From assembly GCA_964187785.1 (NCBI GenBank), contig OZ076409.1, positions 45,448,001 to 45,512,000 on the forward strand: 64,000 bases of DNA. Direction: 5' to 3'. The notes beneath the pieces are model-generated. The model saw only the letters and a list, made by a program, of their open reading frames with translations, did not search any database and was not told where the DNA came from. Both the position numbers and the translations under genes were made by a program. Source of the DNA: Amphiscolops sp. MND2022. Taxonomy: Eukaryota. Shown piece after piece: positions 241-53,360 of the stretch (position 1 is the first letter of the stretch; the number at the start of each line of letters is the position of its first letter).

Positions 241-2757
241 ATGCTCGGTCTATAATGCTAGATCAGTGAGAAACAAGACGATGGAAATTAACTCTGCTAT
301 TCTATCCTCTCAGTCACAACTGATTACTATTACTGAAAGTTGGATCCAAACAAACGATAACGATGATTTTCTCATAAAAGAATGTTTGCCTGAAAATTAT
401 ATTCAGTTTCCCTTTCCCACGGAGTTTTCGACTGGTGGTGGTATTCTTCTCATACATAGAAAAGATGTTTCTATTTCTGTTATTCTAAATCAATGCAACC
501 AAGACTTCGAAATTGTTACTTGTCGAGTACTTTCCTTGAATTGTCCCATCATTTTTATCTGCTGCTGTCGTCCACCTTCTGGAAACTTGCAACTCTTTCT
601 TAAAGAGTTTCATGGGGTACTTGTGAAACTTTCGCCTGAATACAGCTTGTGTTGTCGCGATTTCAATATTCACGTTAATCGAATATGTCCAGCTTCGACT
701 GATTTTAAAGATATTCTCGATGAGTTTGGACTGGTACAGTCAGTTGAACTACCTACTCATAAAAATGGTAACACACTTGATCTTGTCATTGGACCACAAA
801 AGTTTGAAATATGTCTTGTTAGTGTCTCCACATCGGATCTCAATTGGTTATATTTCGACTGCCTAAAACATCTTCTGGAAAAACGTGAAAGATCCGTTGT
901 CAAATTCAGAAATTGGAAAAGTGTTAACCTTGTAGATTTCAATGAAGATTGTTTTTATCACCTCTGGTCTATCGAAGGGTCACCTCTGATTGACAGTTTC
1001 TTGGAAACCCTTCAATCAATAAGTGACAAACATGCTCCAGAAATGGAAAGAGTTATTTCGAAACACGATTGCCCTTTTTCCGATAATGAACTGAGAGCAT
1101 GTAAGAGGAAACGGCGTCAATTGGAAAGATTGTTCAGAAAAACGCGGTCCACCATCGATAGACTATATATGCAAATTGCGACAGAAAACTACTTCAAGCT
1201 TTTTCATAAAAAACGTTCGAGGTTTTTGGAGATGAAACGTAATGATGCTGATACGTCGAAACTGAAATTAACGGCTATTGAAACCCTCCTTGGATCTAAG
1301 AAGAAGCAAACTCTACCTTCGGTCTTTCCTCGTGTGAAATTAGCAAACAATTTTAATGATTTTTTCTTATCCAAAATTCAGAATATTCTTAAAAACATTC
1401 CGCCAGTTTTAGTAGACTTGAAATTCCCGGCCTCTGGAGACTTCTGGAAACCTTTGAAAATGTTGATAACTTATATGTAGTGCTTGTTGGCAATCAAGTG
1501 TTGTCGAAATCTCAACCTAGTCAAAATGTGCCTTCCAAAATTCTGAAGAAGTTGTCATTTTTCTATAACCAGATGTCTAAATTATCAATGAGTCTTTCCT
1601 TAATGCCGTCTTCCCCACTGCCTTCAAACATGGGATAGTTACACCAATTTTTTAAAGCGGTGACATTGAAGAAATATCAAACTACAGACCAATCACGAAT
1701 TTTCATTTCGGTTCCAAAGTTATTGAAAAAGTCATTGCTCTGCAACTCAAACGCTTTTTGGATAAACATACAGTAATTGACGAGCATCAATCTGCTTATA
1801 GGAAATATCATTCAACAGAGACAGCGTTATCAGACCTAACTTCAAATCTTCTATGGGGCCTGAACAACAGCGTTCGACACCGTGGATCATGAAATTCTTC
1901 TGTCATTTTTATTTCAAATTGGGATTATTGGTCAGGCGCATTCCTCGACAAAATCCTACCTGAATGGTCGAACACAATGTGTCCTTATTGATGGAAGCTA
2001 CTCTGAGGATAAATCTATTGAAACAGGTGTTCCTCAAGGATCAATCTTAGGGCCAGTGCTCTTCATTCTATACTTACTCCTTTCGAGGTCTCTACTTAAT
2101 GAATTTCTTGCTAGTTATCATATCTATGCTGATGACATAACGATTTACTTGGAATTTGATCTGGGGACAACCTTTGCCAATTTCCTGAAACATAAAAAGA
2201 TAATTGCCAGTGTTTTGAAACTATTAGCCGCCTTGAAATTAAATGTAAACAGTTCGAAAACTCAATGTATGTTCGTTACGAATCAAGGAACTCGCCTTGC
2301 CGAGACAATCACTATTGATGGGATCAGAATTGAGATCAAAGATAGTGTCAAAGTTTTGGGAGTTACTTTGGATAACAAGTTACGTTTCTCTTCTTTCGTC
2401 AACAGCACATGTGAGAAGTCCTACTATCACCTCAGAAGGATAACATCAATTCGAAAATTTTTGTCTTTCGACCTCACAAAGTTATTGATTCTCACTTTCC
2501 TTATCAGTAGACTAGATTATTGTAACTCACTGTTATATGGTGCTCCGGACTACATGATTAAAAAATTGCAAAGAGTTCAGAATAGAGCAGCATGCCTCCT
2601 TTTTCACCAGAGAAATTCCAATGTTAACTTACTTTTGAATGAACTTCATTGGCTTCCTGTTGAAAAAAGAAATAAGTACAAAATCTTATGCTTCGAATAC
2701 CGTCTTTATAATGACTTGCCTGTGCCTATTTATCTGTCGATACCGTTTTTCAGGTAA
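241..2757 (+). pseudogene. L2 ORF2 (APE endonuclease + reverse transcriptase), frameshifted
   Basis: ORFs 266..1480 (EN) and 1882..2757 (RT) are separated by stops and frameshifts; the C-terminus resumes at 5079-5210. Confidence 0.9.
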
Positions 2758-4478
2758 CAGCAACTTGATCAGTACGATCTGAGAAGTTCCAGAGAACGAA
2801 AATGGACTGTCAGAATTACCAACAAGGGTGGCTGTAAATAGGTGGAATTTTTCTGGTCGAAAGGACAGAGGTTGAACTTTTTTGATCGAATTGCAGGGAT
2901 CGAATGGAATGCGGTCGAATTTTATCGTATTTGTTGTATGGCTCGGTCGCTTCGCTCCCTTCGCCAAGTAGCAACATTGAGGCATGGCCATATTGCACGT
3001 CGCTCCGCTTCGCTTCGCTCCTGCATTCAGGGCTCTAGGGGTATGTGAACACATCTGACTACGTTGTGAAAAATTCGATCCGAGTTGTTTCGATCCCATT
3101 CAAAAATTTGGTATGTCGACCTGAGGACTAACTCTGATTTAGGGAAACGGAAATCGGACTAAAGAAATAGAACTAATGGAATTAGGACTAACATGCTCAA
3201 ATTTTCTGAAACGTTCATGTGAAATAGAACTAATTTCGTATAATTTCAAACAGGAATTAGAACTAATTTGTTACGGGAATTGGAACTAAAAACAGGAATT
3301 AGAACTAATTTGTTACGGGAATTGGAACTAAAAAAGTGAGAATAGGACCTGAAATGCGGAATGAGACCCAAGGGGAGAACGGAATAATATCTAAAGGAAT
3401 AATATCTAAATTTTTTCAAAGTATAAAACGTGCCTCTGATATTTCCTCATTTCCTCTAGTGCCCCGCGGCCCCTTGGGGCCGCTTATGTTACCATCTTGC
3501 TAAGCGAGGTCGAACAGGAGCAAAGAGTTCAGAATAGAGCAGCATGCCTCCTTTTTCACCAGAGAAATTCCAATGTTAACTTACTTTTGAATGAACTTCA
3601 TTGGCTTCCTGTTGAAAAAAGAAATAAGTACAAAATCTTATGCTTCGTATACCGTCTTTATAATGACTTGCCTGTGCCTATTTATCTGTCGATACCGTTT
3701 TTCAGGTAACAGCAACTTGATCAGGACGATCTGAGAAGTTCCAGAGAACGAAAATGGACTCTCAGAATTACCAACAAGGGTGGCTGTAAATAGGTGGAAT
3801 TTTTCTGGTCGAAAGGACAGAGGTTGAACTTTTTTGATCGAATTGCAGGGATCGAATGGAATGCGGTCGAATTTTATCGTATTTGTTGTATGGCTCGGTC
3901 GCTTCGCTCCCTTCGCCAAGTAGCAACATTGAGGCATGGCCATATTGCACGTCGCTCCGCTTCGCTTCGCTCCTGCATTCAGGGCACTAGGGGTATGTGA
4001 ACACATCTGACTACGTTGTGAAAAATTCGATCCGAGTTGTTTCGATCCCATTCAAAAATTTGGTATGTCGACCTGAGGACTAACTCTGATTTAGGGAAAC
4101 GGAAATCGGACTAAAGAAATAGAACTAATGGAATTAGGACTAACATGCTCAAAATTTCTGAAACGTTCATGTGAAATAGAACTAATTTCGTATAATCTCA
4201 AACAGGAATTAGAACTAATTTGTTACGGGAATTGGAACTAAAAACAGGAATTAGAACTAATTTGTTACGGGAATTGGAACTAAAAAAGTGAGAATAGGAC
4301 CTGAAATGCGGAATGAGACCCAAGGGGAGAACGGAATAATATCTAAAGGAATAATATCTAAAATTTTTCAAAGTATAAAACGTGCCTCTGATATTTCCTC
4401 ATTTCCTCTAGTGCCCCGCGGCCCCTTGGGGCCGCTTATGTTACCATCTTGCTAAGCGAGGTCGAACAGGAGCAAAGA
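2568..4478. repeat. 952-bp direct tandem duplication
   Basis: 2568-3519 recurs nearly identically at 3520-4471 (ORF pairs 2686/3638, 2842/3794 and 3497/4449 are all offset by 952). Junction microhomology GCAAAGA. Confidence 0.95.
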
Positions 4479-5078
4479 CCTAGCGGGAACGGAGATCGCG
4501 AAGCGATCGTAGTGGGAGCTGGTCTTTGCGACGGTGAGGGCGAGCGTGCATACACCGAATATGCCCCCACATTAGAAGGGGAAAGTACTGAAAATTTTGT
4601 GAGTCATTTACGAAACGTAAAATTTTTTCTTGAATGAAATGATTTGAGATCTGACTATTTTATAGAATCAATGGAAGGAGAAAAATAATGATTGTATCAA
4701 TATTTTATTGATCAATTGTATTACGTTACTTTTGTACTACTTTCATTGTACTACCACAAAATTTGAATTTTGTACCATGTTTTTATCCGCTTCTGTGTTT
4801 TTTTGTTGTACCTTTTTTATGTTGGATGTTTACAATTGAACAATTCGTGATTTTGCCAATTCGATCTACGTAATTGCAAATTTTCCGTGCCAAAAGTTGT
4901 TTTAGTCCTATTTCAATTAGTCCTATTTCCATTAGTTCTAAGGCGGCACTAAAAAATAATTAGTTCTATTTCCATTAGTCCTATTTAAGTTTTGATCATT
5001 AGTCCTATTTCATTAGTCCGAATTCCTGTCTCCCCTCAGATTTTCGATCCCGTTCCTTCGACCTATTTCCGCCCACCC
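2826..5078. mobile_element. MITE family A (non-autonomous DNA transposon, GGGTGG...CCACCC termini, 8-bp TSD)
   Basis: Imperfect TIRs GGGTGGCTGTAAATAGGTGGAA / TTCGACCTATTTCCGCCCACCC. TSD ACCAACAA at 2818-2825 (and 3770-3777) and 5079-5086. An uninterrupted ~350-bp copy is at 39218-39568. Confidence 0.88.
4093..5034. mobile_element. MITE family B (Mutator-like, 9-bp TSD) nested in MITE A; left part duplicated at 3141-3519
   Basis: TSD CTCTGATTT (4084-4092) / CTCAGATTT (5035-5043). Imperfect TIRs with repeated GAACTAAT/GGACTAA subterminal motifs, inverted at the right end. The empty site is visible in the MITE A copy near 39523. Confidence 0.82.
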
Positions 5079-5399
5079 ACCAACAATACCTATGGAAAAC
5101 GATGCTTCTGGGTATCAGGCGCTGAATTGTGGAACTCACTACCATGTGATCTTGTATTGAGCCCTTCATCTGACACTTTCCAAGCACGACTAAAGACATA
5201 CCTTTTCTGAACGCTTTGAGTGTTAAAAAAGCGTCATTTACAACTTCAACTACAACTTCTTGTCCCCTCTCTTAGATCTATTTCATTAGACCTGATTCCA
5301 CGTAGCCTGAAAATATTAGCTGTTGCTACCATTGTTTGTGCAGATGAATGATTACTTTTTTCATCGCTCACTAGAGGAAACCTGGCGAACATTCTGAAC

Positions 5400-11250: not shown

Positions 11251-11806
11251 AACAATCCGGGAACGGCCAAAGTCGGCGCTATATCTAAGGCTCAAAAAGC
11301 GCAAACATTGTAAAAGGGGGGACCATTTGGGCTTTTTGAAACTCTAGTTTGTTGCAAAATATGAAAAAAAATGAAGGGGGACCCTTTGGAGACTTTAAAA
11401 AAATTTCGAAAAAAGATATAAAAAATGAGATTTTTGAACAGTGTCACTGTCGAAAAATGTAAAAGGGGGACCCTTTGAGATTTTTTAACATCCCTTTTGT
11501 TGCAAAATATCGAACTAAATGAAGAGGGGACCCTTTGGTGCAATCCAAAAATTTTCAAAAAAGTCTCATAGTGCCGAAAAAAATGCGAGTGAAAAAGACC
11601 AAGATAGCCAAAGGGATCCTTAGTATATTTTATGTTTTTGAGGTTCTGAACGTCGGTTTTGTTTCTTTTTGTTTTGGACGAGGTTCGAGTGTTTGGAACC
11701 TCTCGAGTTCAAGTTGTTGAACAAATGAACAAAAAAGTGGACCTTATGCGTCTAAAAAACTACCCACTGTAAGAGTCGGGCACTTTTCATCAAAAGCGCC
11801 GACTAA
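11251..11806 (-). mobile_element. Non-autonomous Helentron-like element (DINE-1/HINE architecture)
   Basis: Asymmetric subTIRs AGTCGGCGC / GCGCCGACT; an extra partial IR (AGTCGGGCACTTTT) near one end; a stem-loop plus TTGTT at the other end on the minus strand; internal AAGGGGGACCCTT and GTGCCGAAAA repeats. Confidence 0.75.
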
Positions 11807-12741: not shown

Positions 12742-14010
12742 GTCGCAATATCGAGAAAAGCGTTCACCCTGGCCCCTGATAGCTATTCGAGATCGCCCAA
12801 TGGCGGAGGCGATGATCCAAACCCCACTGGGAGGAATTCCAATGGCAACCTTAGCACAAGACGCAGTAAACGTTGGCCCAAATTCCTGCTATGTGGGTTA
12901 TGTGCCAGCAGTTGCCACGGACCTGAGTCATCGGCTCCTTCGTGTACCTTGAACTCCGACCAACGGAGGGCAATCCAAGTGAATCGCAACATTGACAAAT
13001 CTTTGCGAGAAGAGAAGGAACGAATTGCACGTGACGTAAAGCTGTTGCTCCTTGGTGCTGGTGAAAGTGGCAAGAGCACGATTGTGAAACAGATGCAAAT
13101 CATCCACAGGACCGGCTACAACGAAGACGACTGTATGAAGTATAAACCTGTTGTTTTTAGTAACACTGTCCAGAGTATGGTTGCCATTATCCGTGCAATG
13201 GGCAGGTTAGAAATCAGCTTCAGTTCGCCAGAGACAGAAGAAACTGCCAGGAGATTTTTTCGACTGGCCCAGGAACACGCCGAGCGAGAGTGCCGCGACC
13301 TGTCGGAAGAGTTTTGGGAGACAATCAGAATTTTGTGGCAGGACAGCGGCATCCAAGAGTGCTACTCCCGAGCTAACGAGTACCAGCTGAACGATTCTGC
13401 TGGCTATTACTTTAACTCAATAGACAGAATATCACAACCTGACTACATGCCAACCGAACAAGACATCCTGAGGACCAGAGTGCGAACAGCCGGCATAGTT
13501 GAGATCCAGTTCAGCTTCCGTAGGCTCAACTTCAGAATGTTTGACGTCGGAGGTCAAAGGTCGGAGCGAAAGAAATGGATTCACTGCTTCGAGGGGGTCA
13601 CTGTCATCATTTTTTGTGCAGCCTTGTCTGCGTATGATCAGGTGCTGGCTGAAGACGAAGAAACCAACAGGATGCACGAGAGCATGGAATTGTTCGAATC
13701 AATCTGTAATAGCAAATGGTTCTGCACCACCTCAATTATACTTTTCCTCAACAAAATGGACCTTTTCGAAGCCAAAATTCAGAACTCACCTCTCACTATC
13801 TGCTACCCCGAGTATACAGGTGAAAATAATTACAACGATGCCGGCCACTACATTCAAGAAAAGTTTGAAAATTTGAACAAGAAGAAAGACACCAAAGAAG
13901 TTTATCCTCATTTTACTTGTGCTACTGATACCACTAACATACAGTTCGTTTTTGACGCTGTCACAGACGTGATCGTAAAAAAGAATCTACAAGAATGTGG
14001 TCTTTACTAA
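12742..14010 (+). CDS. GNAI: Heterotrimeric G protein alpha subunit, Gi/o family; single coding block, start codon unresolved
   Basis: [62 protein letters not shown]-terminus KNLQECGLY. The frame is open from 12742 to the stop at 14010 with no intron. The symbol is family-level only. Confidence 0.93.
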
Positions 14011-16040: not shown

Positions 16041-16162
16041 GCATCAGTAAACATTTATAAAATAAATATAATATAAATAAAATGAACAAGCCGGGAACGG
16101 CCCAAGTCGGCGCCATATCTAAGGCGCCGACTTTATAAAATAAATATAATATAAATAAAATG

Positions 16163-16690
16163 AACAAGCCGGGAACGGCCCAAGTCGGCGCCATATCTAA
16201 GGCTCAAAAAGACTCGAAAACGAAAACCACTTTTTCTACAACTGGAGACAACAAAAGCTCGCAAAAAACTAAAAATTGAGAAAAAAAAATTCCGAATTTT
16301 TTTTCGAATTTTGAAGTTTCCGGTAAGTCGCACAGTGCCGAAAAATGTAAAAGGGGGACGCTTTGAGATTTTTTGAACATACATTCTGTTGCAAAATATC
16401 AAAAATTGATGGGAGGAACAATAAAAAAATTTCGGAAAAAAAATCAGTCTCACAGTGTCGAAAAAAGGAGGAAAGTCTCATAGTGTCGAAAAAAGTGGAC
16501 CCTTCTGCTTTGGAATGGCTTTTTATCTCATGTTAGAGGCTTTGGATGCGTTGAAAATGTACTAAGTACATATGGTAAAAGTTGGTAAATGTGCATTAAT
16601 GCACAAAAAGTGGACGTTTCGCGTTGAACTGACGAAAAAAAACTAGCCACTGTAAGAGTCGGGATTTTCTTCGAAAACGCCGACTAAAAA
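16163..16690 (-). mobile_element. HINE-like element, preceded by a 78-bp duplication containing a minimal copy
   Basis: Same termini as 11251-11806 (AACAAGCCGGGAACGGCCCAAGTCGGCGCC ... AAAACGCCGACTAAAAA). Confidence 0.78.
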
Positions 16691-17680: not shown

Positions 17681-18121
17681 TGCCTTTTGCTACGACTGAT
17701 CTAACCACTTTAACTGTCAATTGGAGATCGGGGCCAAATGTATCCTGATGTTTCTGAGAACTCAATCATAGAAGGTTAAAGTGTGCACCCGTGATCTGCA
17801 AAGGAGGAAAAATCAGTGAGAATGCATATCAAAAGTAATACTCATGCCAGCCAATGTTGTGGTTATATAATTCCGGCACTTAACTATGCTTTTCAAGTAT
17901 TACGTGCTAGTTTAGGATCAATGGAGAACATTCAACCTCAAGTGATATCATAGATTATTAACGATGCTTGCGAAGACTTCGAAACACAATTTGAAAATCG
18001 AAACTCATTTGCTGTCAGTATGGAAACGAGTTGGACGAAAAGTTTGACAAAAATTCGATTAACCACGTCATCTAGGAGAGTTACCGAAATGGGTTTGACC
18101 CAATGAATCCGGGTAAAAGAG

Positions 18122-18689
18122 AACAAGACGGGAACGTCTAAAGTCTGCGCTATATCTAAGGCTCAAAAGGCGCAAAGTTTTTAAAATTGTAAAAGGGGGG
18201 ACCCTTTAGACTTTTTCAAATCTAGTTTGTTGCAAAGTATCAAAGAGTTGAAGGGGGACCCTTTGGAGACATTAATTTTTTTTTTAAAATTTTCGAAAAA
18301 AAAACGAAAAATGAGAAGTCTCATAGTGCCGAAAAACTAGAAAGGGAAAACCTTTCGGGCTTTTTGAAACTTCAGTTTGCTGCAAAATATCAATAAACTT
18401 GAAGGGGGGACTCTTTGGCAACAAAACAAAATTCGAAAAAGTCGCACAGTGCCGAAAAAAAATTCAAAGGGGGACCCTGTAGTCCCTTCGGTTTTGTACC
18501 TTACGTTAAAAATTGAATACACGGAAGGGGGACCCTTTGCACTTACTTAGATGCGTTTCCGCTTGCCGGTCCAGTAGTTTAGTAGTTCTGTAGAAAAAGT
18601 GTCCACTACGCATACATTCTGTGGTCTGACGAAAAAAACTTGCCACTGTCATAGTCGGGCTCATTTTGATAAAATGCGCCAACTAAAAA
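18122..18689 (-). mobile_element. HINE-like element
   Basis: Same terminal architecture and internal GGGGGACCCTTT repeats as the other copies. Confidence 0.72.
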
Positions 18690-29059: not shown

Positions 29060-31430
29060 ACCATGAGGAACCATACTTTACTTTCATGGCAACCGGTTAA
29101 AAATTTGCGAAACGTTTCCATTTTACGTGCTTCAACCTCAATTGCCTTGGCTCCAGGATTAGGAGTTTCGCGTCAGACGACTGGGGGAAGAACATCAGCA
29201 ACTGTGACAACCCACACCAAAATTTTACCTATCAACCAAGGGAACATGATAACACCATCTAAGCGTTTCCCATCAGTTCGGTACAGTCCACGCGGCTCGA
29301 GCACTTAAGGCAAGTCGAGAGATCCCAACGTCGTCTTTATGAGAGAATTGAGAGTAGCATGACGTGAGAAACGACCTGCACTCTTGGTCCAAAAAAGACC
29401 GTGTAAGTCGTCCCGTTCAACTTTTAACACAGTGGCACGTATGCGCAACACATATGTTGGCTCCGAGTCGTGAACCATTCGAAATCCGAAGTTGCTGATT
29501 GTCAAGTTTCAGACCTAGGTTCTTGCAAGGAACAACGTTCAATCACTGAGACCCGAAATTGGCTTGATGAGCGTTAAAAACTTTCGATCGTTTCTCATCC
29601 TATCTAGAAATCAAATCTTGGGCGGCTTTGACGTAGAAAAGTTGGGTCCAATTTTTCTGGCTTCCATCGAAATAACTTGCCTGTTGATTCGTCAAACTCA
29701 ACCATTTCTCCAGCGCTTTCTTGAAGGATAATGTTGCAGAGGAAACACAGAGACCACCCATTTCAGCGGGCAGAGGCAGCTGAGTACCCGCGAAAACGTC
29801 GCAATTCACGTTACATACTTTGGAAAGCCCGTCCAGTACCTCTTTTGTCACACGTTTCCAAGATAGCTGGATTATTGAATTATGTACTGGTTCTCTAGAA
29901 GAACAACAACTTGTCAGACCGAAGCAATTTTTGAACATTAGAAATCATCAAGAGCATCGGGTTTTTCGAAAACTCCATTACCTTCTTCCAGTTCATTGAG
30001 TTTTTTCCAATAAGTCTGCCTGCGATTTCGTGCCGAGCGGTGAACCAGGGAAAATTAGTTCATCTTTCGTTGGCGTTTTAATTCCGGGGCAGATATTTTG
30101 AACGAGTCTAAATTTGTTGGTCGTCGTGGTTTAGTGATGTCACTAAGCAAAAAAATTTCGTGAGCTTAAGGGCCAGTCCAAGCATTTTCCTCCTCAACAA
30201 TTTTTGTGAGATCTTTCAGAACGGTTCTTTAATCATCTTTTAAATTTCCATCGTCGAGATACCATAAGTTTAATTTCGACTCCAAACTGTCAATCAGATA
30301 CTGAATGGAAACCGAAAGTAAAGTTGAAGACTCAAGATCTCCTGGCTGTGTCCCTTCATATCCTTTTATTACCTTATCATCGTAAAAAAAGAAACACGGT
30401 TGTCTCTCACTCATAACTTTCGGTGTGTATTTGGAAAGTTTTCCGGAGAATGAAATAAAGGTTTGTCGAATTGAAAGGTTCTCCAAAGTCAGTTTTCAAG
30501 TTTAGGTTTTTTTGGGCTGGGGCTTTCTTTCAGACAAAGGAACACATGTGGCCGATTGGTGCCAACACATACTTGTCGACTTTCATATCGTACTTGACGT
30601 GTGTCAAAGACATGGTACCGACACATTTTGCGGACAACCGGCGGAAAGTATTGACCACAGCGATAAAACGGAGTCGTCCTTCAGACTTTTTGTCCAGACT
30701 AGTTTGTACAAATGAAGTACGGATTAGGTTCGGAAGTACATTTTCTTCGAGAATCATATTGACAAAATTTGTTAGGGCTCTCAGGAAATTCAGCCTGTTT
30801 GCCCGTTCGAATTGGCAGCCAAATATTTCAAAATTTTGAGCGAAATGTCATCCAAACCTGCACTAGGGTGGTTGTGGAGTGACATGAGAGCAATATGGAC
30901 GATGAGCTCAGAGATTGAAAAACAAACATCATATATGGTGTCCGGGACTGTGCAAAGTTTCCTCTGGGTATGTTTCAGCTTGAGGGCCGCGTAATTGTCG
31001 ACCGTGAAGGCTGCAATGTCATCGTCGCCTACTTCCATTCCGATTCCGGCCTTAACAATACCTTCGTCTAATTTAATGCAACAGGAACGCAGTTGTTGGT
31101 ATATTTCCGTTTCCTGCTGCAATTTTTCTGCCACATTTCTGTTGTTTTTTTCTCGAAAACCATACCGAACACGTTTGTTGATATTTGCACTGAGTGATGA
31201 CCTCTGACGTTTAACTCATAAAACAACTTAGAGAGGAGAGCAATAAATACCGCAAGGCAAAATCTGACAGGGTTTCCCTAAAAAAATTCAGGTATCACGT
31301 TTTCAGCTAGGGGTATCCCTGAAGTTGAAGGAACTCTTTTCAACTGAACAACGCCTGAAATGAAAAGTAACTGGTCCAAATTCCTCATCATGACAGTTAG
31401 GGATAGTGTCACAGAAGAGACCCTACAACA
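29060..31430 (-). mobile_element. Decayed CRE-like non-LTR retrotransposon (RT + restriction-like endonuclease)
   Basis: Minus-strand motifs SAGLDDIS, LRFIAVVNTFRRLSAK, EGTQPGDL, LWYLDDG, LPAEMGGL; the RLE region is homologous to 33230-33470. Many stops and frameshifts. Confidence 0.8.
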
Positions 31431-32499: not shown

Positions 32500-33715
32500 C
32501 ATACAACAAATAGGTTTGCGGGTCAACTCAACTCCATGTGGTGCATTTTAGGACAAATTGACAGGACAATTGTACTTCCTGAGAACCAGTACATGTTTTA
32601 TTCATCCAGCTCTCTTGGAAAAATTGACAAAACCGTACACGATAGGCTTTCCAAAGCGTGTAACGTGAACTTCGACGAGATTCCGAGTACTCAACTGGCT
32701 CTGCCCGCTTAGATGGGAGGTTTTGGGGTTTCATCCCCATCATTATCAGCACTTTCCGCCTTTCTGGTCTCAGCTTTTGGTGCGAGTGACTTTCTCATGA
32801 CGATTTTCTCGGAAACATTCGAAGATGTTTCGTTTACGAAAGCGCTTGAGAAATGGTTGAGTTTGACGAATGAACAGGAAAGTCCTCTCGATGGAACTCA
32901 GAAATTTTGGACGCAACCTGTCTACGTCAGAACCGCCCAAGATTTGATATCTAGAATGGATGACAAACATTCGAAAGTTTTTAACGCTCATCAAGGCACG
33001 TTCGGGTCTCAATGGCTAAACATCGTTCCTTGCAAGAATTTTTGCCTGAAACTTGATGATCAGCAGCTTCGGATTTCATTTGGTTTGCGTCTCGGAGCCA
33101 ACATCTGTGTTGCGCAAACGTGCCACTGTGGTAAAAGAGTTCAAGGGGGGACCGTTTACACGGTCTCTCTTGCACCAAGCGTGCTGGTCGCTTCCCACGT
33201 CATGTCATTCTCAATTTTCTCATAAAGCAGACGTTGGGTTCACTCGACTTGCCTTCAGTGCGCGAACCGCGTCGACTGTACCGAACTAATGGCAAATCCC
33301 CAGACGGTGTTACCATGATTCCTTGGGAAATGGGTAAACAGTTGGTGTGGAATGTCACGGTTGTGGATGCTCTTGCACCCAGCCGTCTGAATGAAGGCTC
33401 TTTATGCAACCTGGGAACCACCGCCACCGATGCTGAAGCGCGTAAAATTGAGAAGTATCGGGAATTAATAGACAACGGATACTTTTTTCAACTGGTGGCC
33501 TTGGAAGTTCAGGGTTCTTTAGGCGAGAGCAGTGAAATTTTCATCACGCGTCTCTGTAGAATGATCTGTCGTTCGCACGACGATCAATGAGTTGGCAGCT
33601 TTTGGAAGCAACGGATTTCAATGGCTCTTCAGATCGGCAATGCGGCCTCTGTTCTAGGAACTGTGAGCGACAGAGATGCGTTGGAAGATATTTATTATTT
33701 TTTAACTTATTAACT
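32500..33715 (+). mobile_element. 3' half of a CRE-like retroposon, inverted relative to 29060-31430
   Basis: STQLALPA*MGGFGV, SQWLNIVPC...LRLGANIC..TCHCG, KSPDGVTMIPWEMGKQLVWNVTVVDALA, EARKIEKY, QRISMALQIGNAASVLGT. Confidence 0.85.
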
Positions 33716-34135
33716 TTTTTTTAAATCTCTATATCATTGCAGCTTCAAAAAAATTTTACCGGTCGACTGGGACAGTGGCTGGGGTATATGGTCAATTGGC
33801 TTAATGCCATTTGGCTTTCGAAACAGGTTGGGTAGCAATGAAGAACTGAATTGAGATTGATTAGTTATGATCAGACTTGGTTCATGTATTTACAATTGCA
33901 ATTGATGGTAGACGTGGTTCAGCATCGGGTATATGTAGCACCGCGACAGGTACCTGTTAGTCAACAAAAAATGTGCAGTATCAAGAGTTGTAAGTTGTAA
34001 CGCACAAACAGGTACATCAATGTGCGACATCAAAAGTTGTGTCTGCGATGTCATCTGGCAGGTACTTGAACCTTAGGGATCGTGGCTCATCATTTGATCG
34101 TTCCCGCCTCGCGAGGTTGATGGCAAACCTTGACA

Positions 34136-37090
34136 CCCCCGCTTTGCCGACAGTCGAGCAAGGTGTTGTTGCGTCTTCGTCTTACCCAGTCCCTTCGTGA
34201 AAATGTCAGCTCAATTGTCACCACTTGCAATAAACTTCAGATAACTCGACTGATTCTTCACTGTCTCTCGCACATAGGCCATCCGAGTTGCAAAGTGTTT
34301 CGTCTTTGCGCTGTTGTAATCTCTGGTTGCTTATGCTAGGCACGATTGACTGTCCGTGAACAAAGTTGTCGCTATGGATTCTCCAAGAGTGTCCAGAATC
34401 CCCCGCAAATGCACCGCTTCCTTTACAGCTTTGCTCAAGGTATGAAGTTCTGCCTCAATGGCTGAAGTCGCTACATACGTTTGTCGTCTAGCAGCCCACG
34501 ATATTGCCCCACTACCCACGTTGAAGCAGAAACCAGTGATGCTTCGTCTATCGTCCTTGCAGCTGGCATAGTCTGAATCCGTGTATCCATTTAGGCCTGT
34601 ATCATCGCACTTCATGAAAGTGATGCCCACGTCAGCTGTACCTCTGAGGTAGCGTAAGACGTGCTTCGCTGCTTGCCAGTGAGCAAACCCAGGGTTGCTA
34701 AGAAATCGAGAAAGTAGGTGGGCCGGGAAAGCCAGGTCAGGTCGAGTGGACTGTGAGAGGTAAGCAATGCTACCCACTAGACCTCTGTAGTCATGTCTCA
34801 ACATTTGCTGTTGCTCATCTGATCCGTCTTCTGGCATCTGATCCTTCGTCAGCTCCAGCTTGTCTGCGAGTGGTGTTGAAGCTACCTTGCACTCGCCCAT
34901 ACCGTGTTTGCGAAGTAGGTTGCTCACATACCCCTGATGCTTCATTGTCAGCGAATCGTCACCCCACTTGAAGGAAATTCCCAAGAACCACGTCAGACGA
35001 CCGTTTCCGCCAATGTTGAACCGCTCGCTCATCTTGTCATTGAACCATGTGGTGAATTGACTGTCAGTGGACCCGTAAAGAATATTATCCACCAAGATCA
35101 CTATTCAGCACTTGTGGCCATTCCTCGTCAGAGTCAGTAAGCAAGGGTCGTGAAATGATGCCTTGAAGTTGAGCTCAAACAGATGGGAAGTGACACACTC
35201 AAACGAATTGCGCCCCGATTGCTTTAGTCCATAAAGTGACCGCTTAAGCTTGCACGCCATCTGTTTGCCCTTTTGGTACCCCTCTGGCTGCCCCATGTAG
35301 ACGTCTTCGTGAATTGGTGCGTTCAGGTATGCTGTCTTTATGTCCATCTGATTGAAATGCATACCCAGCTTCACCTCACATGCCAGGACAGTTCTGAGTG
35401 TAGACAGCTTCGCGGTTGGTGAGTAGGTGTCGTGAAAAGTGTTGTGCCCCATTACTTGATGCCAGTGCTTGATAGAGTGATGCATCATTGACAGTGACCC
35501 CGTTTCCACAGGTTGAGCCATCACACTGAAAAGTTCGTCGTTTGTCATCATTGGCACAACAGTTCCATTGGGCATCTTGATGGTTGGGTCGTCATTGAAC
35601 TGAATCATTGCCCTCTTGTCCGTCAATCGCTTGACTGACACCAGATTCCTCGCGTAGGATGGCACCCAGAAGGCATCCCTGCGTTCCAGTAGACAAGAAC
35701 GGCCCGTATTGTCCTTCACAAAGCATGACACTGTCCCACGTCCTCTGATCTCTGCACGACTGCTGTTAGCGTTGCATACGTCTGCCAGAAAACCCTCGTC
35801 CAGATCAGAGAAGAGCTCTTTGTTCTTGATCATGAAGCCGTTGCACCCAGAGTCAATGAGAAGCTCAATGCTCCCCTTGTCGTAGCAACCTGCCCTGGAA
35901 GCCCCGAAGCTGAAGAAGTCCGCTGATGAATGATTGCTGGATTGACCCGAGCCACATCCTCCACTTGAGCGTTTTGCTGTCCCTTCCTGCAAGATGAAGC
36001 CAGACGCCCCTTCTGACCACAGTTGAAGCAAGTCCTCGTCTCCCGACTGTGGCAGTCCTTAGCTCGGTGCCCCATCTTTCCACACTTGAAGCACTTTGGA
36101 GGCTTCCTCCCGGCTGAGTGAAATGTTGTCATCGATGTCTCGCTGGGAACACAGAGACCCCTGGTTGCTGCGAAGTTGACGAAGTCCTGCTTCATCTCGT
36201 AGTACCCCTTTGCTGTATCGAAGTTGAGGACTGCCACCACCCTGTCGAAGTCACTTGGAAGATCCTTGAGAATCATCGCTTTGAAGAGAGCATCTGAGAC
36301 AACTTCTCCTGCAAGATGAAGCCAGACGCCCCTTCTGACCACAGTTGAAGCAAGTCCTCGTCTCCCGACTGTGGCAGTCCTTAGCTCGGTGCCCCATCTT
36401 TCCACACTTGAAGCACTTTGGAGGCTTCCTCCCGGCTGAGTGAAATGTTGTCATCGATGTCTCGCTGGGAACACAGAGACCCCTGGTTGCTGCGAAGTTG
36501 ACGAAGTCCTGCTTCATCTCGTAGTACCCCTTTGCTGTACCGAAGTTGAGGACTGCCACCACCCTGTCGAAGTCACTTGGAAGACCCTTGAGAATCATCG
36601 CTTTGAAGAGAGCATCTGAGACCACTTCCCCCGCTTCAGCCAGATCCAGTTTGAGCCCTTCTGCTTTGGTGAGGTAGTCAGTCACCTCCTCCCCTGATGT
36701 CATCTTGAGACCAGTGAGCTGTGTCATCAGTGATTGAACACGAGGCCGTTCAGTTGATTTGTGGAGCTTCGTCAAAGCTGTCCAGGCAGCAGTCCCATTC
36801 GGCTTGTGCACTCTGATGAAGTTGATGCTTGCCTTGTTAAGGCACTGAACCAGCTCGCACCACACCATGTACTGTAGTTTGGCTCGATCTGCTTCTTCCC
36901 CCTCTCGCTTGACACGTTCGTCATTCGTCTCCACATCTTTTTGAGGTGTTGTTTCGATTCTGTCCAGAAGGCAGTCAGAAAGTCCCAGATCATAGACTCT
37001 TGCTTCGAACTGCTCCAGAAAAGTGGGGAAGTCATCCTCTCGTCCACTAAACAGCAGGTTCACTTTTCGAGAGTGTCGTTGTGCCGTCAT
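34136..37090 (-). pseudogene. Copia gag-pol, disrupted (integrase core deleted, 322-bp gag duplication, stops)
   Basis: ATG at 37090 (MTAQRHSRK). The pre-integrase motif WHQVMGH is joined directly to RT-proximal FHDTYSPTAK at ~35440. RNase H continues through stops to ADIFTKGL. Confidence 0.88.
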
Positions 37091-37363
37091 CGTGATCTGC
37101 GCTGGTGAGGCCAGGGTTCTCAAACTCAAACTCAAACTTTCAAACTCAAACTCAAACTTTCAAACTTTTAGGTTTCAAACTCAAATTCAAACCAAACTTC
37201 ATTATATTATCAAACTTAAACCCAAACTCAAGCTCACGAAAAAAGTTCAAACAGTTTGAGTTGTTTGACTATTTCTTAATATAACGCAGATGGCTATAAT
37301 TTTTTCATTTTTATTAAAATTTCAGCAAGGTGATTCAGAAGTTTTAGTTTTAGATCGTATGGT

Positions 37364-38098
37364 ATGGGCAAGTCGTCTCCGAAGAAAGACTGGCGTCCAT
37401 TTGCAATCAAAAATCCGCGGCTCAGGGGAAAGTTTTTGTGCGGTTATAAAGATAGGAAGAAAACTAATTTGAGAGGATGTATAGCTTGTAATTTGGATAT
37501 TCGGTGCAAAAACGGAGTCACGTCACCCTTATTGCGTCATGTTGATACCTGTGTTGGATCAAGTCCCGTTATGGAAGAGGATCAATCATTGTTAAAGTTT
37601 CTTTCTGGAAAGAGCAGAAAATATAATCTAGCACAGCGTCTAGTTTACAATTCCAATTTTTCTGTTAACAAGATTTGCACTTCCAAAAAGTTTTTGGAAA
37701 TATTTAAGTTGGCGAAGCTTGGAATTCCAACATACTCTGAATTACAGGAAAGTCTTACAAGCTCATACCTTGAAAGAATTGAGTCTGTATCCAATTTGCT
37801 GGCTGCAAATGATCCGCTCGTTTTGTGTTTGGACAAGTGGACTAACCACCACGACGAAAAATTCATCGGAGTATATGTTCTTCAAAAGCGAAAGAAGATA
37901 TTTTTAGGTCTTGAGAATTATGATTCAAAATGCACTGCTACTTATATGAAAGATCGCATAATCGAAATTCTGCAGAAATTTGGCATTGGAAATTTTGACC
38001 GATTCGTTTGCGTTATGTCAGACTGCGGGTCAGACGTTGTACACTGTATGAACACTGCCGCGCCAAAGGTGCTAACTCCAATTGTAATTGACAATTAA
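37364..38098 (+). CDS. Truncated hAT transposase (BED finger + first catalytic motifs)
   Basis: DWRPF...CIAC...SPLLRHVDTC (BED-like), LCLDKWT and VMSDCGSDV. The C-terminal catalytic and dimerisation regions are missing. Confidence 0.8.
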   Translation: MGKSSPKKDWRPFAIKNPRLRGKFLCGYKDRKKTNLRGCIACNLDIRCKNGVTSPLLRHVDTCVGSSPVMEEDQSLLKFLSGKSRKYNLAQRLVYNSNFSVNKICTSKKFLEIFKLAKLGIPTYSELQESLTSSYLERIESVSNLLAANDPLVLCLDKWTNHHDEKFIGVYVLQKRKKIFLGLENYDSKCTATYMKDRIIEILQKFGIGNFDRFVCVMSDCGSDVVHCMNTAAPKVLTPIVIDN

Positions 38099-38306: not shown

Positions 38307-38814
38307 GGAGTGTACGCCTTTGATCTAAATGCCGCGGGTCTAATGGAATTAGATCTAACTTTAAGATCTAACTTTCAGATCTAATTTTATCTAAAACACT
38401 TAGGTCTAACCCTTTCATGATCTAATATGTGTTCTGAAAGCGAAAATATAATGTGGGGCATATGCGATGTATGCACGCTCGCCCTCACCGTGGCAAAGAC
38501 CAGCTCCCACTACTACGATCGCCTCGCGATCTCCGTTCCCGCTAGGTCTTTGCTCCTGTTCGGCCTCGCTTAGCAAGTTGGGAATATAAGCGGCCCCAAG
38601 GGGCCGCGGGGCACTAGAGGAAATGGGGACATATCCGAGGCACGTTTTTTACTTTATATCATTTTTTAGTTTTTGATCCTAATTGACTTATTTTTTCCCA
38701 AATTAGATCATATTAGAAGAGATTTTTAGACCTGATTATTTATATCAATTTATTTAAATCTCGGTTTTGCCCCCTCTCTTAGATCTATTTAATTAGACCT
38801 GATTCCACGTAGCT
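38307..38814. mobile_element. MITE family D (9-bp TSD, AGATCTAA/GGTCTAA subterminal repeats) nested in the hAT
   Basis: TSD TTTTCAAAC at 38298-38306 and 38815-38823. Carries the shared core in reverse orientation (~38452-38650). Its right end matches a solo end at 5264-5306. Confidence 0.75.
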
Positions 38815-39217: not shown

Positions 39218-39568
39218 GGAGTGGCTGTAGATAGGTCGATTTTTTCTGGTCGAAAGGACAAAGGTCGAACCTTTTGATCGAATTGCAGGGATCGAATGGA
39301 ATGCGGTCGAATTTTATCGTATTTGTTGTATGGCTCGGTCGCTTCGCTCCCTTCGCCAAGTAGCAACATTGAGGCATGGCCAAATGGCACGTCGCTCCGC
39401 TTCGCTTCGCTCCTGCATTCAGGGCACTAGGGGTATGTGAACATATCTGACTACGTCATAAAAATTTCGATCCGAGTTGTTTCGATCCCATTCAAAAAAT
39501 TTGGTATGTCGACCTGAGGACTAACTCTGATTTTCGATCCCGTTCCTTCGACCTACTTCCGCCCACCC
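39218..39568. mobile_element. Complete MITE family A copy in the Copia 5' LTR
   Basis: Near-identical to MITE A at 2826/3778. TSD GTGTGTAC / GTGTGTGC (8-9 bp); the empty site is present in the other LTR. Confidence 0.9.
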
Positions 39569-39976
39569 GTGTGTGCGATGTCATCTGGCAGGTACTTGAA
39601 ACTTAGGGGTCGTGGCTCATCATTTGATCGTTCCCGCCTTGCGAGGCGGATGGCAAACCTTGACATTGGCTTAAAGTCATTTGGCTTAAAACAATTGGTC
39701 ACTTGGCTTAATTTTTTAAGGCTAAGTGTCTCGGGTATTGGTCACTTGGCGTAAAGTCATTTGACTTAAAACCACTTAGCTGTGAACACGTGGCAGATTT
39801 TGTCGAATTTATCTTTATAACGTAGCGTATTATTATAACATGTCATATCAAGACTCCTCGGATATGTCCCCATTTCATCTAGTGCCCTGCGGCCCCTTGG
39901 GGCCGCTTATATTCCCATCTTGCTAAGCGAGGTCGAACAGGAGCAAATGGTATTAAGCCAAGTGACTGGTAACCCG

Positions 39977-40325
39977 GAAAAGGACATATAAGCGGAATAA
40001 GACCTAAAAATCGGAACAACACCTAAAAAAGTGGAAATAAGACCTAAAAACGAGAATAGGACCTGAATGCGGAATGAGACCCAAGCGGAGAACGGAATAG
40101 TCTTTGAAGGAACAATATCTGAAGTTTTCTTTAATATAAAACGTGCCTGTGATATTTCCACATTTTATCTAGTGCCCCGCAACACTTTGGGGCCGCTTAT
40201 GTACCCATCTTGTTAAGCGAGGTCGAACAGGAGGAAAGACCTAGCGGGAACGGAGATCGCGAAGCCATCGTAATGGGAGCTGGTCTTTGCGACGGTGAGG
40301 GCGAGCGTGCATACACTGGATATGT
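39977..40325 (+). mobile_element. Fragment of a MITE B-related element with the complete shared core
   Basis: 40050-40325 is homologous to 4290-4565. Confidence 0.75.
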
Positions 40326-40839
40326 AATATTAGAGGACGTTTCGGCGACAAAGACGTTTCGGCGACACTTCGTCTGTATATATATCGCCGAAACGTCTGT
40401 CACCGAAACGTCCAGAATCCGTTTCTTTTTGTTACTGGTCTACTGGGATAGTGGTTGGTATGGGGTCCCTACTTTCGTTGCGGACCACGGGTGTGTCTTC
40501 TCCCCCCAACATGATAATACACATGGCACTTGATTGATGACGAAGATCCATGATATCTGAGAGGAAAAAATTTTGACATGTGTTTTAACATGCATCACCG
40601 GGTATGCACTTGTTTGTGGGAATAGTTCAATTGTGTCGAAATTCTTTATCTTCTTGTGATTGAAGGTTGGGGTGATGTCACGCTGTAAACTCGCAGAGCT
40701 TATATTGTCAGTAATGACTCCACATCGATAACTAGGAGAAACTTCAATTGCGGAACTAATTTTTAGAAAACGTCGGACCTTCCACGTCTACCTTCTTGAA
40801 AAACCTCTGTAAAAAATTGTGCGTGTGCAATCAAGAAAA

Positions 40840-41308: not shown

Positions 41309-41622
41309 GGCTGGGGGGCACATACCAGGTACTAACTGGAAGAGCCTCTCCGGAACAGAGGGTAGCTGGATTAGCCGACCAGTCCACCTCTTCAAAAAGA
41401 AAACAGGCGAACCGATCGGCAACGTTTGTCAACCGAAGACATCAGAGGGTTTACAAATGTTCTGCTCTGGAAACAGACATTGAAAGCAATCCAGGGCCGG
41501 GACACACGAGCTGTAGAAGGAAACAACGAAGAGAAATAAAGAGAGAGAAGCGAAAGATTTCCTTAAAAAACCAACTAGAGGGAACAGAGATAAAAATAGC
41601 CACCTGGAATCCTTCTCGATGA
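41248..41622 (+). CDS. RTE 5' ORF with a 2A/StopGo motif and the first strand of the APE domain
   Basis: DIESNPGP at 41476-41499, then a basic linker and KIATWN. The deletion junction is at ~41611. Confidence 0.7.
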   Translation: MKFNLLAWCLVDVSDDKKNFRLGGTYQVLTGRASPEQRVAGLADQSTSSKRKQANRSATFVNRRHQRVYKCSALETDIESNPGPGHTSCRRKQRREIKREKRKISLKNQLEGTEIKIATWNPSR

Positions 41623-43316
41623 GAACCAGGCAGGTTTCAGGGCTGACCGCTCTACCGCAGACGCCACACAGATTTTCGTCAGAATAAATGAGGACATCAA
41701 ACAGTATCAAAGGTCGAGAAATGTCACAGACAACGCAGAAGCCATCTTACTGGACCTGAGGAAGGCATACCCTCGAGTAAACAAGCCGATCCTCTGGGCC
41801 CTGCTGAGAAGATACTCACTGCCACAGAAAATAATAAATAAACTAATGGACCTCCACGAGCACACGAGCTACAAGGTCAAAGGTGCGGAGGGTATGAGTA
41901 CAGCATTCTACCCAGAAAGAGGATTGAGGGAAGGGTGTGCTACCTCACCCGCACTTTTCAACATATATCACCAAGCAGCTATTCGCATAGCAGAGAGCAA
42001 GCGGGAGGAAGCTGCCAGGGAAAATGGAAAACAATGCGGGATCAGATGGTCGTATTTACCAGGAAACAGATTCCCTCCACAACGCAGAGGTCAACAAAAC
42101 TCGGATGCAAGCCAAAAAATTTTCACGCTCTCTCTCTTCGCTGATGATACAACAGTAATCGGTCACAACGATGAAGTAGAAGAGGGAAAGAGGATAGTGG
42201 AAAGATGTCTCCTCGAGTTTGAAGAACAAACGAACTTAGACAAAGAGGAGAAAATGGTTTTTGGCGACGAGAAGAACAACACAGAAATTCGAATGCTTGG
42301 AACGTGGATGGAGAACAATAATGACACAACGAAACGCATCCAAAGGGCGGGAAAGAACTGGGCTACCATCAAAAGGAGGTTCCTGAAATGTCGTCTGACC
42401 AAGCGAACACAGGCCAAAGTAGTGGAAGCCTGCATAGAGAGCACAATGCTCTTCAATGCATCGGTTCGCCCGTTCAAGCTGAAAGAGATCAAAAGGATGC
42501 AAACTTCCATGGACAAGAGATATAGATACATCTGGAGCGATAAGAATGGCCAACCTCTACGCCAGATGGAAGAGAAACACTTAAATATGGCGGACATCAG
42601 AGAACAACTGAATGTAACATCTCTCAGAACGAAGATAGATAAAGCTCACCTCCTAAGAATGGGCCACGTTCTGAGAATGAACGATGACAGGTTGGTGAAA
42701 CAGGCAGTGCTAGGATGGTACAGCAAACTAGAAGAAGAGAATAAGACGAAAAAACTCCCACACAGGAAACACCATAACATACTGGCGCAAACTTATCAAT
42801 GAAGCCGGCGAGGATCCCAAAAATATTGAACACCTGATAACCGATCGAACCAAGTGGAGAGCGCTCGTACGGAACAGAGTAAAACACCTCGAAGAATATG
42901 AGAGACAGCAAGGCCACAACCACGTAATCCAACCCGATGAAATCATCAGAGACAGAAGGGAATCGACGAAAACACCAACCGAAAACACCCTTCAATGCGA
43001 GATTTGTGACAAAGTGTGCAGAAGCAAAGCAGGCCTAGCTATACACAGGAAAAGGCTTCACGACTCGCAACAAAAAGAGACTCAATGCGAGAAATGCGGC
43101 AAGACTTTCACACAAGAAGCCACACTGAAGAACCACATGAAAAAGTGCCTCGAAACATCACAAACACTTGCCTTCAGCTCGAAAATATGTCCCGAAGAAA
43201 GGAGTCTGCCTGAGATGCGATTCCCTGATAGCGCTTACAAACATGTCAAGACACCAAGCAACGAACAAATGCAAAACCCTCAGTTTACTGAAGAAGACAA
43301 ACGGAACCGATACTGA
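41612..43316 (+). pseudogene. RTE reverse transcriptase + zinc fingers, frameshifted near 42760 and ~43160
   Basis: Open RT frame 41612-42802; CEICDKVCRSKAGLAIHRKRLH and CEKCGKTFTQEATLKNHMKKC follow downstream. Confidence 0.85.
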
Positions 43317-44029: not shown

Positions 44030-44640
44030 GTGTTCTGAGACATTCCAAAGCAGAAGGGTCCCTTTTATAGTTTTTTTCGGCACTATGAGACTTCGCCCCC
44101 CCCCTTTCGGCTTTGTGAGGCTTTTTTTCGAACGCTTTTTAATGTCCGAAAAGGGTCCCCTTCATTTTTTGAGCTTTCGCTACAGAATGGATGGTGAAAA
44201 ATCGCAACTGTCTTCCCTTCTACAGTTTTCGACATTGCGAGATATTTTAAATTAACATTTTTTGTCTTGCAATAAATTCGTCTTGAAAGATCGGCGTTTT
44301 TTATACGCGACTATTTTTCTAATTTGTTTTCATCGAAGCCCCCTCTCAATATTTACTAGAAACGAAACGTTTTGCGAGCATAAAGGACTCCTTAAGGGTT
44401 TTCGGCACTATGCGACTTACCGGTGACCTTCAAAAAAATTAGAAAAAAGTTTTTTTTGAAACATTTTCGGTTCAGAAAGATGTTTTTTGCTGTTTCCAGT
44501 TGGGAGGAATGGTTTTCGAGTCTAATGTGTATCCCTTCGGGTATTTTTTGCCGCTGTAAAATTGATGAAATTTTAGTAATAGCGTCATTTTGCATATTTA
44601 AAAAACTTTTGTTGAACCTTGAGACGGGCGCCGACTTCAA
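44030..44640 (+). mobile_element. HINE-like element (degenerate)
   Basis: Reverse complements of the internal repeats (GGGTCCCCTT, TTTTCGGCACTATG) and the subTIR GGCGCCGACT at ~44627. Confidence 0.6.
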
Positions 44641-52200: not shown

Positions 52201-53360
52201 ACTGAAACCGATGAAGATACGCCTAAACACTGGAATAACAGCTGAAACCAATGCGTGCAGTACAATTAGGTCTTTTTTTTACCAAATTTAAGTAAGTTTA
52301 GGCGTTATTCCACCACTATAGTGATTTGATCAGAATAACGACTAAAATTTTAAAAAAGGTCCCAACTCTGGAATAACGACTAAATTCAATGTAGATACGT
52401 CTAAACACTGGAATAACGGCAAAAATCAGTGCGTACAGTACAATTAGGCCTTGTTTCATCAAACTAAAGTGACGTTAGGTGTTAATCTACCACTTTAGTG
52501 ATTTTATCAGCATGAAGACTAAAATTAAAGAAAAAAGGTCCAAACACTGGAATAACGGCTAAAATCAATTCGTACAGTATAATTAAGCCTTGGTTTGCCT
52601 ACCTTTAGGTGTTATTCCACCATTCAAGTGGTTTTTCCAAAACAAGGACTAAAATTTAAGAAAAAATGTCCAAACTCTGGAATAACAACTAAAATCGATG
52701 AGGATACGTCTAAACACCGGAAAACAGCTAAAATCAATGCGTACAGTAGAATTAGGCCTTAGTTATTCCATTTAGAGTGATTTTAGGCGTTATTCTACCA
52801 CTACTGTAATTTATCAGAATAAGGACTAAATTTAAAGAAAAAAGGTCCAAACTCTGGAATGACGACAAAAATCAATGAAGATACGTCTAAACACTGGAAT
52901 AACGGCAAACATCAAAGCTTACAGTACAATCAGGCCTTGTTTTACCAAATTAAATTGATTTTAGGTGTTATTCCGCCACTGAAAAGATTTTTCCAGAACA
53001 AGGACTAACATTTAAGAAAAAATGTCCAAACTCTGGAATAACAACTAAAATCAATGAGGATACGTCTAAACACCGGAAAACCGCTAAAATCAATGCGTAC
53101 ATTAGAATTAGGCTTAAGTTTATCACATTAAAGCGATTTTAGGCGATTCGACCACAATAGAGATATTATCAGAATAAGGACTGAAATTAAAGAAAAAAAG
53201 GTTCAAACTCTGGAATGACAACAAAAATCGATGAAGATACGTCAAAACACGGGAAAAACAGCTAACATCAATGCGTACAGTAGAATTAGGCCTTAGTTTA
53301 TCCAATTAAAGTGATTTTAGGCGTTTTTCTACCACTACAGTGATTTATCAGAATAAGGAC
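49225..53360. repeat. 2068-bp tandem duplication spanning the unique/satellite boundary
   Basis: 49225-51291 recurs at 51293-53360 (ORF pairs 49556/51624 and 49985/52053), almost identical. Confidence 0.95.

Follow-up and report, generated by a model that had tools for sequence, protein, structure and literature searches.

The closest described parallel to the module reported here is provided by the CMITEs of corals, families with different TIRs whose common interior is better conserved than the TIRs themselves and has no counterpart in the matching autonomous element (PMC2872659). The origin of that interior was left unexplained, a role in transposition was suggested, and the text of the report describes no structure for it (PMC2872659). 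Coral CMITEs are of the piggyBac type (TTAA), ~100 bp long, and amount to six families and ~1,600 copies with a 75-nt interior (PMC2872659), whereas the elements studied here are of the MULE type, comprise at least 20 families and at least ten thousand copies, and carry three core types with a mapped minimal unit and a predicted G·A rod. As in corals, the interior is here more conserved than the TIRs between families and is absent from the autonomous partner; we have set these elements apart from CMITEs proper given that their duplications are of 8-9 bp and not TTAA, a separation made on the published description of CMITEs.

The end architecture of the hosts is of the Phantom-class Mutator/Foldback type (PMC3169594, PMC5225508). 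Indeed, elements of the Tm1/Phantom class likewise have a FLYWCH and MULE transposase, composite TIRs made of tandem motifs, asymmetric 7-bp outer ends and 9-bp duplications (PMC3169594). Tm1-HH is also comparable in being a non-autonomous class with a conserved captured hairpin, but this is a host histone stem-loop confined to one low-copy family (PMC3169594), whereas the core described here has no Rfam match and is found in many families. Muta1 of Aedes aegypti is a further animal MULE, in which sub-terminal repeats are accompanied by duplications of 8 or 9 bp, and the passages on it cited here mention no common internal module (PMC5225508, PMC5499845); the mobilising enzyme in our case is likely of the Muta1 type. 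In the heteromorphic MuDR elements of maize, Mutator arms and interiors have been exchanged by nesting, recombination and conversion, the exchanged interiors being transposase genes (PMC10401008), unlike the non-coding module considered here. One-strand C-GNA-G caps such as those of the core are found in the GCGNAGC mini-hairpins of the G4 origin, RSF1010 ssiA and N4 promoters (PMC13037366) and in the end hairpins of Helentrons and HINEs (PMC4067079); those systems are single-strand or rolling-circle replicons (PMC13037366, PMC4067079), whereas the core lies inside cut-and-paste elements.

Two aspects are thus known already, a hairpin acquired by capture (Tm1-HH) and an interior conserved above the TIRs (PMC2872659, piggyBac MITEs of corals). 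What appears to be new is such a module across many Mutator families, with a predicted G·A rod. A search of the open-access literature, without Repbase or Dfam, returned no account of this module or of one crossing Mutator families, and no report of G·A rods in MITEs was found in open-access papers. The core presumably also bears some likeness to bacterial REP-type repeats.

The window, by which we mean the whole stretch of 64,000 nucleotides analysed, contains the following features of relevance:

2568..3526, plus strand: first unit of a tandem duplication, containing an A core at 2928-3059 (minus strand) and a B core cut at 3526
3778..5078, minus strand: MITE A host copy, split by MITE B, with a perfect 8-bp target duplication at 3770-3777 / 5079-5086
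3880..4011, minus strand: A-type core, in the MITE A copy that hosts MITE B
4093..5034, plus strand: MITE B, inserted in MITE A; sub-terminal repeats GGACTAA/GAACTAA
4372..4572, plus strand: B-type core, within MITE B
4390..4417, plus strand: 5' box, ending in CTAGTGCCC, common to types A, B and C
4418..4435, plus strand: perfect 8-bp hairpin with a TT loop, in the B type only, seen in the sequence and in the fold
4456..4545, plus strand: predicted rod of Watson-Crick stems and five G·A internal loops, with a GC-GAA-GC cap at 4498-4504
4549..4563, plus strand: 3' box CATAC...ATATG, located by pattern search
38307..38813, minus strand: MITE D (GATCTAA family), its left end adjoining another element
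39218..39568, minus strand: MITE A with an A-type core at 39320-39451 and an 8-bp duplication with 1 mismatch
39667..39974, plus strand: MITE C (GGCTTAA family), its left end damaged and its core joined by deletion to the right arm
39992..40420, plus strand: chimeric MITE, with a GACCTAA-type left arm, a B core at 40135-40324 and a TTTCGGC-type right arm

Self-BLAST of the window and inspection of its sequence place the core at 4381-4570, inside MITE B, and further copies were found where a preliminary description of this DNA had put them. GATCGC-GAA-GCGATC (4494-4508) lies within the stem GCAAAGACC/GGTCTTTGC at 4472-4480/4521-4529, and both this long stem (4472-4529) and the hairpin with a TT loop (4418-4435) are as first described. 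MITE B is flanked by a 9-bp target duplication (4084-4092 / 5035-5043, 1 mismatch), and other copies of its family have the same family ends and 8-9-bp duplications. By self-BLAST, the reverse B-type core in MITE D extends over 38449-38655 (92%), a partial B core at 39856-39947 (92%) lies in MITE C, where it had been reported at 39855 but proves to be joined by deletion to the right arm, and the copy at 40142-40324 is about 87-89% alike. The last of these is present as reported (at 40142), but its host is not MITE B but the chimera with a GACCTAA left arm and a TTTCGGC right arm. Similarly, the partial copy given as 3430-3526 exists (3418-3526, cut at 3526, by self-BLAST) but is not a separate insertion: it is the broken edge of a tandem duplication of 959 bp (2568-3526/3520-4478, 99.3% by self-BLAST). 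For the MITE A at 39218-39568 an empty paralogous site is found at about 34015-34065.

Other repeats were noted in the remainder of the window. A satellite array with a 177/178-bp unit and higher-order periods of 356 and 528 bp occupies 50100-64000, a long inverted repeat (29102-29906 / 32570-33466, ~79% alike) flanks a 432-bp tandem pair, and an abundant repeat family with internal sub-repeats and without the core is present at 11251-11583, 16054-16690, 18121-18689 and 44038-44448. Two uninterrupted ORFs, at 12742-14010 and 46177-47346, presumably resemble a G-alpha-i subunit and a YTH-domain protein, and the coding fragments at 212-2757, 34331-37159, 37334-38098 and 41600-43316 we take to be LINE-like, Copia-like and hAT-like.

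The three MITE A copies carry, on the minus strand, the diverged homologue with three ordered blocks that had been noted earlier (about 2928-3059, 3880-4011 and 39320-39451), and its similarity to B is distant. In a global alignment A and B are colinear with z 5.4, a score reached by none of 500 shuffles, whereas the local alignment score of A and B falls within the shuffle range, with no significant local match, and the A and B profiles do not cross-match. The similarity between A and B is thus real yet distant at the sequence level. A third type, C, is clearly related to A (alignment z 18.7), has its 5' half in common with A and its 3' box in common with both A and B, and occurs with at least seven arm types as judged by eye, one of which now carries A. 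A search with an outlier copy gave 436 candidates, the best ones being 80-88% alike; type C is old, while A and B are young. Diverged core variants were noted at L224:1550-2050, L170:1-330, L275:2650-3000 and L007:2650-3050, some without recognisable arms, and two old type-C fragments in the evenly spaced sample likewise have no recognisable arms.

About ten thousand or more MITEs carry the core, of 130-190 bp. The 5'-box pattern has at least 9,565 exact matches across the 1.07-Gb animal genome and the 3'-box pattern at least 10,060, against 2 and 1, respectively, for the reversed control patterns; the core is thus far above chance. In 60 10-kb stretches taken at even spacing (600 kb), profiles of the three types gave 27 matches (11 B, 10 A and 6 C), some of which belong to the same element. 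Scaled up to the whole genome, this would correspond to some tens of thousands of core pieces. The core has no match in Rfam at gathering and E-value thresholds and no tRNA match in ARAGORN. Metagenome contigs gave 0 core matches, and among viral contigs 10 matches were obtained, a chance level, with 0 backed by BLAST. Core-like pieces do occur in contigs of other organisms' public runs and of seawater RNA runs, in a small share, and another organism's run yielded, again in a small share, contigs with B-like arms and no core cover; owing to these small shares neither transcription nor absence of the core is demonstrated, and the contigs indicate only that the module occurs outside this assembly too. 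Coding and tRNA-like identities were considered by eye and dropped, the short ORFs having no conserved frame and a possible A box having no spaced B box. In 40 evenly spaced 10-kb loci (L031-L070) the CpG observed/expected ratio is 0.94, which suggests little CpG methylation.

The hosts are at least 20 FLYWCH-MULE (Phantom/Foldback-like) MITE families, about 24 end families being distinguished by eye and 40 left-arm classes among 71 copies giving an upper figure that includes truncations. Every host with verifiable ends starts with GG (GG...CC) and has 7-9 asymmetric outer nucleotides, tandem sub-terminal motifs in inverted arrangement and target duplications of 8-9 bp. A strict automatic duplication filter was passed by 92 of the 291 near-full cores, with ends mis-called in about a dozen of the 32 clusters, and a strict TIR finder was mostly unsuccessful because the ends are asymmetric. 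MULE ORFs are many in the genome, and in the five scanned MULE was detected in 5/5 and FLYWCH in 4/5, one falling below the cut-off. Autonomous partners were found for 5 MITE families, outside window families A-D, one of the matches being weak (73% over 92 bp). Homology is limited to the arms in 5/5 pairs, and the core types A, B and C have 0 matches in the five partners at E 0.05, hence the core is not a deletion remnant of these partners; an ordinary deletion-derivative MITE, with an interior taken from its partner, was rejected (0/5 pairs). In agreement, only 2 of 30 MULE loci contain a core, each time within a nested MITE. The module is therefore common to unrelated MITE families, as had been claimed, and the chimeric arms, together with cores 90-98% alike under different arms, bear out that it moves between them.

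Two observations concern the autonomous elements themselves. Two MULEs with different TIRs, at L133:2430-2520 and L134 near 2526, have a G/T-rich 3' non-coding segment in common, and this segment resembles a long hairpin. At L147, near 2440-2475, a single AT-rich hairpin capped by GC-GAA-GC was seen by eye close to, but outside, the ORF for the transposase in an autonomous MULE.

The boundaries of the core were analysed by comparing copies chosen by one box only. Among copies chosen by the 5' box, 65/71 extend to the 3' box. The six exceptions are each a single copy: three carry nested insertions, one has an internal deletion, one is truncated and one is a C-like variant. Past the 3' box, each family has its own points of departure from the reference, and these are many and range from the box edge to 100 bp beyond it. 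Conversely, from 30 loci chosen by the 3' box, 3 duplicates were removed and all 27 unique copies reach the 5' box, some departing 2-8 bases upstream of it. A further exception is a family in which two copies have lost the 3' box through similar deletions. Natural breakpoints, which in related families are not independent of each other, thus map a minimal unit of about 125 bp between the boxes, and the arms of the different families encroach on the core shoulders as far as both boxes, no further. The comparison across families revealed neither own ends nor a target duplication of the core, for which a check had been suggested; ATATG is present at both core ends, with common homology running beyond it.

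Families were also sampled by their TIR ends only, regardless of the core. The core is present in 29/30 copies of one family (128 ends genome-wide) and in 29/30 of a second (345 ends), with 27 of type A and 2 of type C, the 30 copies including five local duplicates. A third FLYWCH-MULE family (103 ends) has the core in 0/30 and includes 2-4 core-less MITEs, of which 2 are complete with target duplications, the other copies being full-length elements or deletion derivatives; two further core-less MULE MITEs were found elsewhere. Clearly, as core-less MITEs with target duplications exist, the core is not needed for mobility, and the earlier suggestion that it is required by the transposon families does not hold. 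Where a core-bearing MITE exists the core dominates its family, the basis being three families, too few to generalise, and total end counts are of the same order with the core (128, 345) and without it (103). Within families, shared-versus-singleton selection tests gave no significant result (p 1.0 and 0.19), their power being low because most copy variation is post-insertion decay, and a de novo search for MULE MITEs in 600 kb called only 2 elements, one with and one without the core, and has no power.

We have also considered the secondary structure of the core. Under standard folding the B stems are visible and A has no stability (z +2.2). Nevertheless, all three 3' halves can be drawn as one rod, in which GA/GA or GNA/GNA loops alternate with short Watson-Crick stems and GC-GAA-GC forms the cap. 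With a G·A-aware model, built post hoc after the motif was seen and with its own energies, z amounts to -5.3 (A), -8.9 (B) and -7.8 (C), scores reached by 0/200, 0/60 and 0/200 shuffles, respectively, and the Watson-Crick-only, mirror-motif and reverse-strand controls for A are flat. B has five G·A loops, shuffles at most two. On the other hand, the 5' hairpins of A and C do not score significantly in the same model (z -1.9, 0.1). GNA-triloop sites grow into rods in 125/398 cases within cores and in 1/406 outside, with no rods in 23,992 bases of autonomous elements (11 elements) nor in 30 kb of random sequence. Outside the cores a single G·A rod was seen, at L316:2690-2725 (minus strand), where a run of T precedes a short palindrome around GAGCGAAGCGAG; this segment resembles a Helentron/HINE start.

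C-GNA-G occurs 6/3/4 times on the plus strand of the cores and 0/0/1 times on the minus strand. The cap-adjacent stems of B and C are entirely different, the basal stem of A and C is changed on both sides (TGGC/GCCA versus TGAC/GTCA), and in A whole GCGAA units are lost in recurrent deletions that spare the first hairpin. Compensatory (double) changes within types are few, in a count in which the basal part of B was paired out of register. The three types are thus predicted to have different stems and a single architecture, a plus-strand G·A-mismatch rod, and the hairpins, earlier taken for exchangeable ones, do differ in their stems but look like one fold class, a tandem G·A rod with a GC-GAA-GC cap. 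Tandem G·A pairs occur in RNA too, a fact that was counted against our best explanation. Among the motifs of DNA are GGA/GGA zippers flanked by sheared G·A pairs (PMC11014236), and GCGNAGC mini-hairpins are far stabler as DNA than as RNA and, in single-strand replicons of phages and plasmids, are located at priming or promoter sites (PMC13037366).

The observed distribution of the core, its hosts, its absence from the partners, the ragged family-specific shoulders and the chimeric arms are in our judgement best explained if the core is a selected structured cis-module which spreads through the exchange of ends and helps copying, likely in the form of single-stranded DNA, an account that we hold to be probable, though only just. 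Capture would take place where core-bearing MITEs cluster and nest, the arms of a new transposase family being placed round an existing core, either by template switching in gap repair or by crossover in the common core or in look-alike sub-terminal repeats, after which the old arms would erode. We infer such end-swapping from the clustering, the nesting, the chimeras and vestigial motifs, with a parallel in maize (PMC10401008). Amplification would then be limited to products that retain the sequence from the 5' box through the 3' box, a retention by selection to which the minimal unit, the dominance of the core in its families and the fold all point. The fold may act as single-stranded DNA, most likely on a strand exposed transiently in replication or excision-gap repair, and as a pause or a priming/landing structure the rod would let a larger share of excisions give a net extra copy. 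The single-stranded action is the weakest step and we regard it as doubtful: the one measured MULE mechanism is cut-and-paste via double-strand breaks (PMC5499845), and a pathway with no known single-strand step in the element counts against it.

In a neutral relay, the core would be the interior of an early abundant MITE that was reused as the commonest repair template, through nested insertion and microhomology between similar sub-terminal repeats, and homogenised by gene conversion, its hairpins being by-products of GCGAA slippage and template switching. Indeed, MITE ends are 3-9 times denser near cores (0.12-0.34 per kb versus 0.037 in evenly spaced sequence). The core itself does not attract insertions, as 7.7 kb of core contain 3 nested ends, a density not above that of the far flanks. 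Chimeric left and right arms are common, the shoulders being patchworks of sequence from other families, Mutator clades are known to have exchanged arms (PMC10401008), the selection tests are not significant and core-less MITEs transpose. We nevertheless find this relay unlikely, as it gives no account of why erosion halts at both boxes across many families, and palindrome correction would not make purine-only G·A loops on one strand in three types with different stems.

Selection could also act on the core as RNA, or as a duplex protein-binding or promoter array made of the boxes and the GCGAAGCG repeats, in which case a host or element protein would open chromatin, block silencing or bend DNA between the arms. 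The ordered sequence boxes are conserved, several left shoulders contain words that we take to be TATA-like and CCAAT-like, and core pieces are found in contigs of seawater RNA runs. In addition, the core is oriented in the transposase sense in 4/5 pairs, and internal enhancers of MITE excision are cited in the coral report (PMC2872659). Set against this, the TATA-like shoulder is missing from several amplified families, the orientation is opposite in one pair, no Rfam match exists, RNA folding has no plus-strand preference in A or C, and the caps are GAA triloops, neither GNRA nor UNCG tetraloops, so that an RNA or duplex function is considered improbable.

Still further removed is the notion that the core is, or was, an independent element inserting into MULE MITEs, such as a non-autonomous Helentron/HINE, a Crypton or a SINE, which we deem very improbable, present-day mobility of such an element being largely refuted. 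The genome is rich in intact Helitron-type ORFs, a HINE-like start elsewhere has the same GA-GC-GAA-GC-GA motif, the two old type-C fragments lack recognisable arms and ATATG stands at both ends; however, there are no fixed boundaries, TT target, subTIR pair or empty-versus-filled pair within one MITE family, and no tRNA or Rfam head. Helitron ends consist of 5'-TC and hairpin-CTRR-3', inserted between A and T. In the core CTAG is internal with conserved sequence on either side, and at 40 Helitron loci, whose element ends may fall outside the stretches compared, nested MITEs in one were the only core homology, so that a Helitron was rejected. Helentrons and HINEs have fixed ends, a subTIR pair, a 3' stem-loop and insertion in TT (PMC4067079), whereas the boundaries of the core vary by family, with neither fixed ends nor subTIR pair nor TT insertion (DINE-1-like elements included), and a SINE or known structured RNA was discarded with no tRNA, 5S or 7SL head and no Rfam family, no SINE or Helitron with independent boundaries being matched. 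Many clustered, stop-free Helitron-like ORFs of about 2,375 aa were seen at G000:C1 71-76 Mb and elsewhere. Finally, that all hosts are one family with diverged TIRs and a drifting core is refuted, for although MULE-type end architecture is common to all verified hosts, cores 90-98% alike lie between arms that match different autonomous transposases, each without the core.

Within the reading of a selected module spread by end-swapping, we tentatively propose an end-less selfish module that parasitises MITEs, its predicted G·A rod of single-stranded DNA boosting copying by whatever Mutator transposase ends surround it, and which would have swept successively (C, then A and B) through dozens of families. 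Such a parasite of MITEs, if real, would enhance amplification independently of the transposase, and selection in these MITEs would have it as its unit. The conserved interior of coral CMITEs was left unexplained (PMC2872659), and this genome offers a far larger case of the same pattern, with matched autonomous partners, a naturally mapped unit of ~125 bp, three types and one predicted fold. If the fold acts as single-stranded DNA, cut-and-paste amplification would include an unrecognised replication- or repair-coupled step. The core thereby touches on two open questions, how MITEs come to outnumber their autonomous parents and where MITE interiors originate, and the MITE interior as a selected enhancer becomes an idea directly testable in the existing MULE yeast assay.
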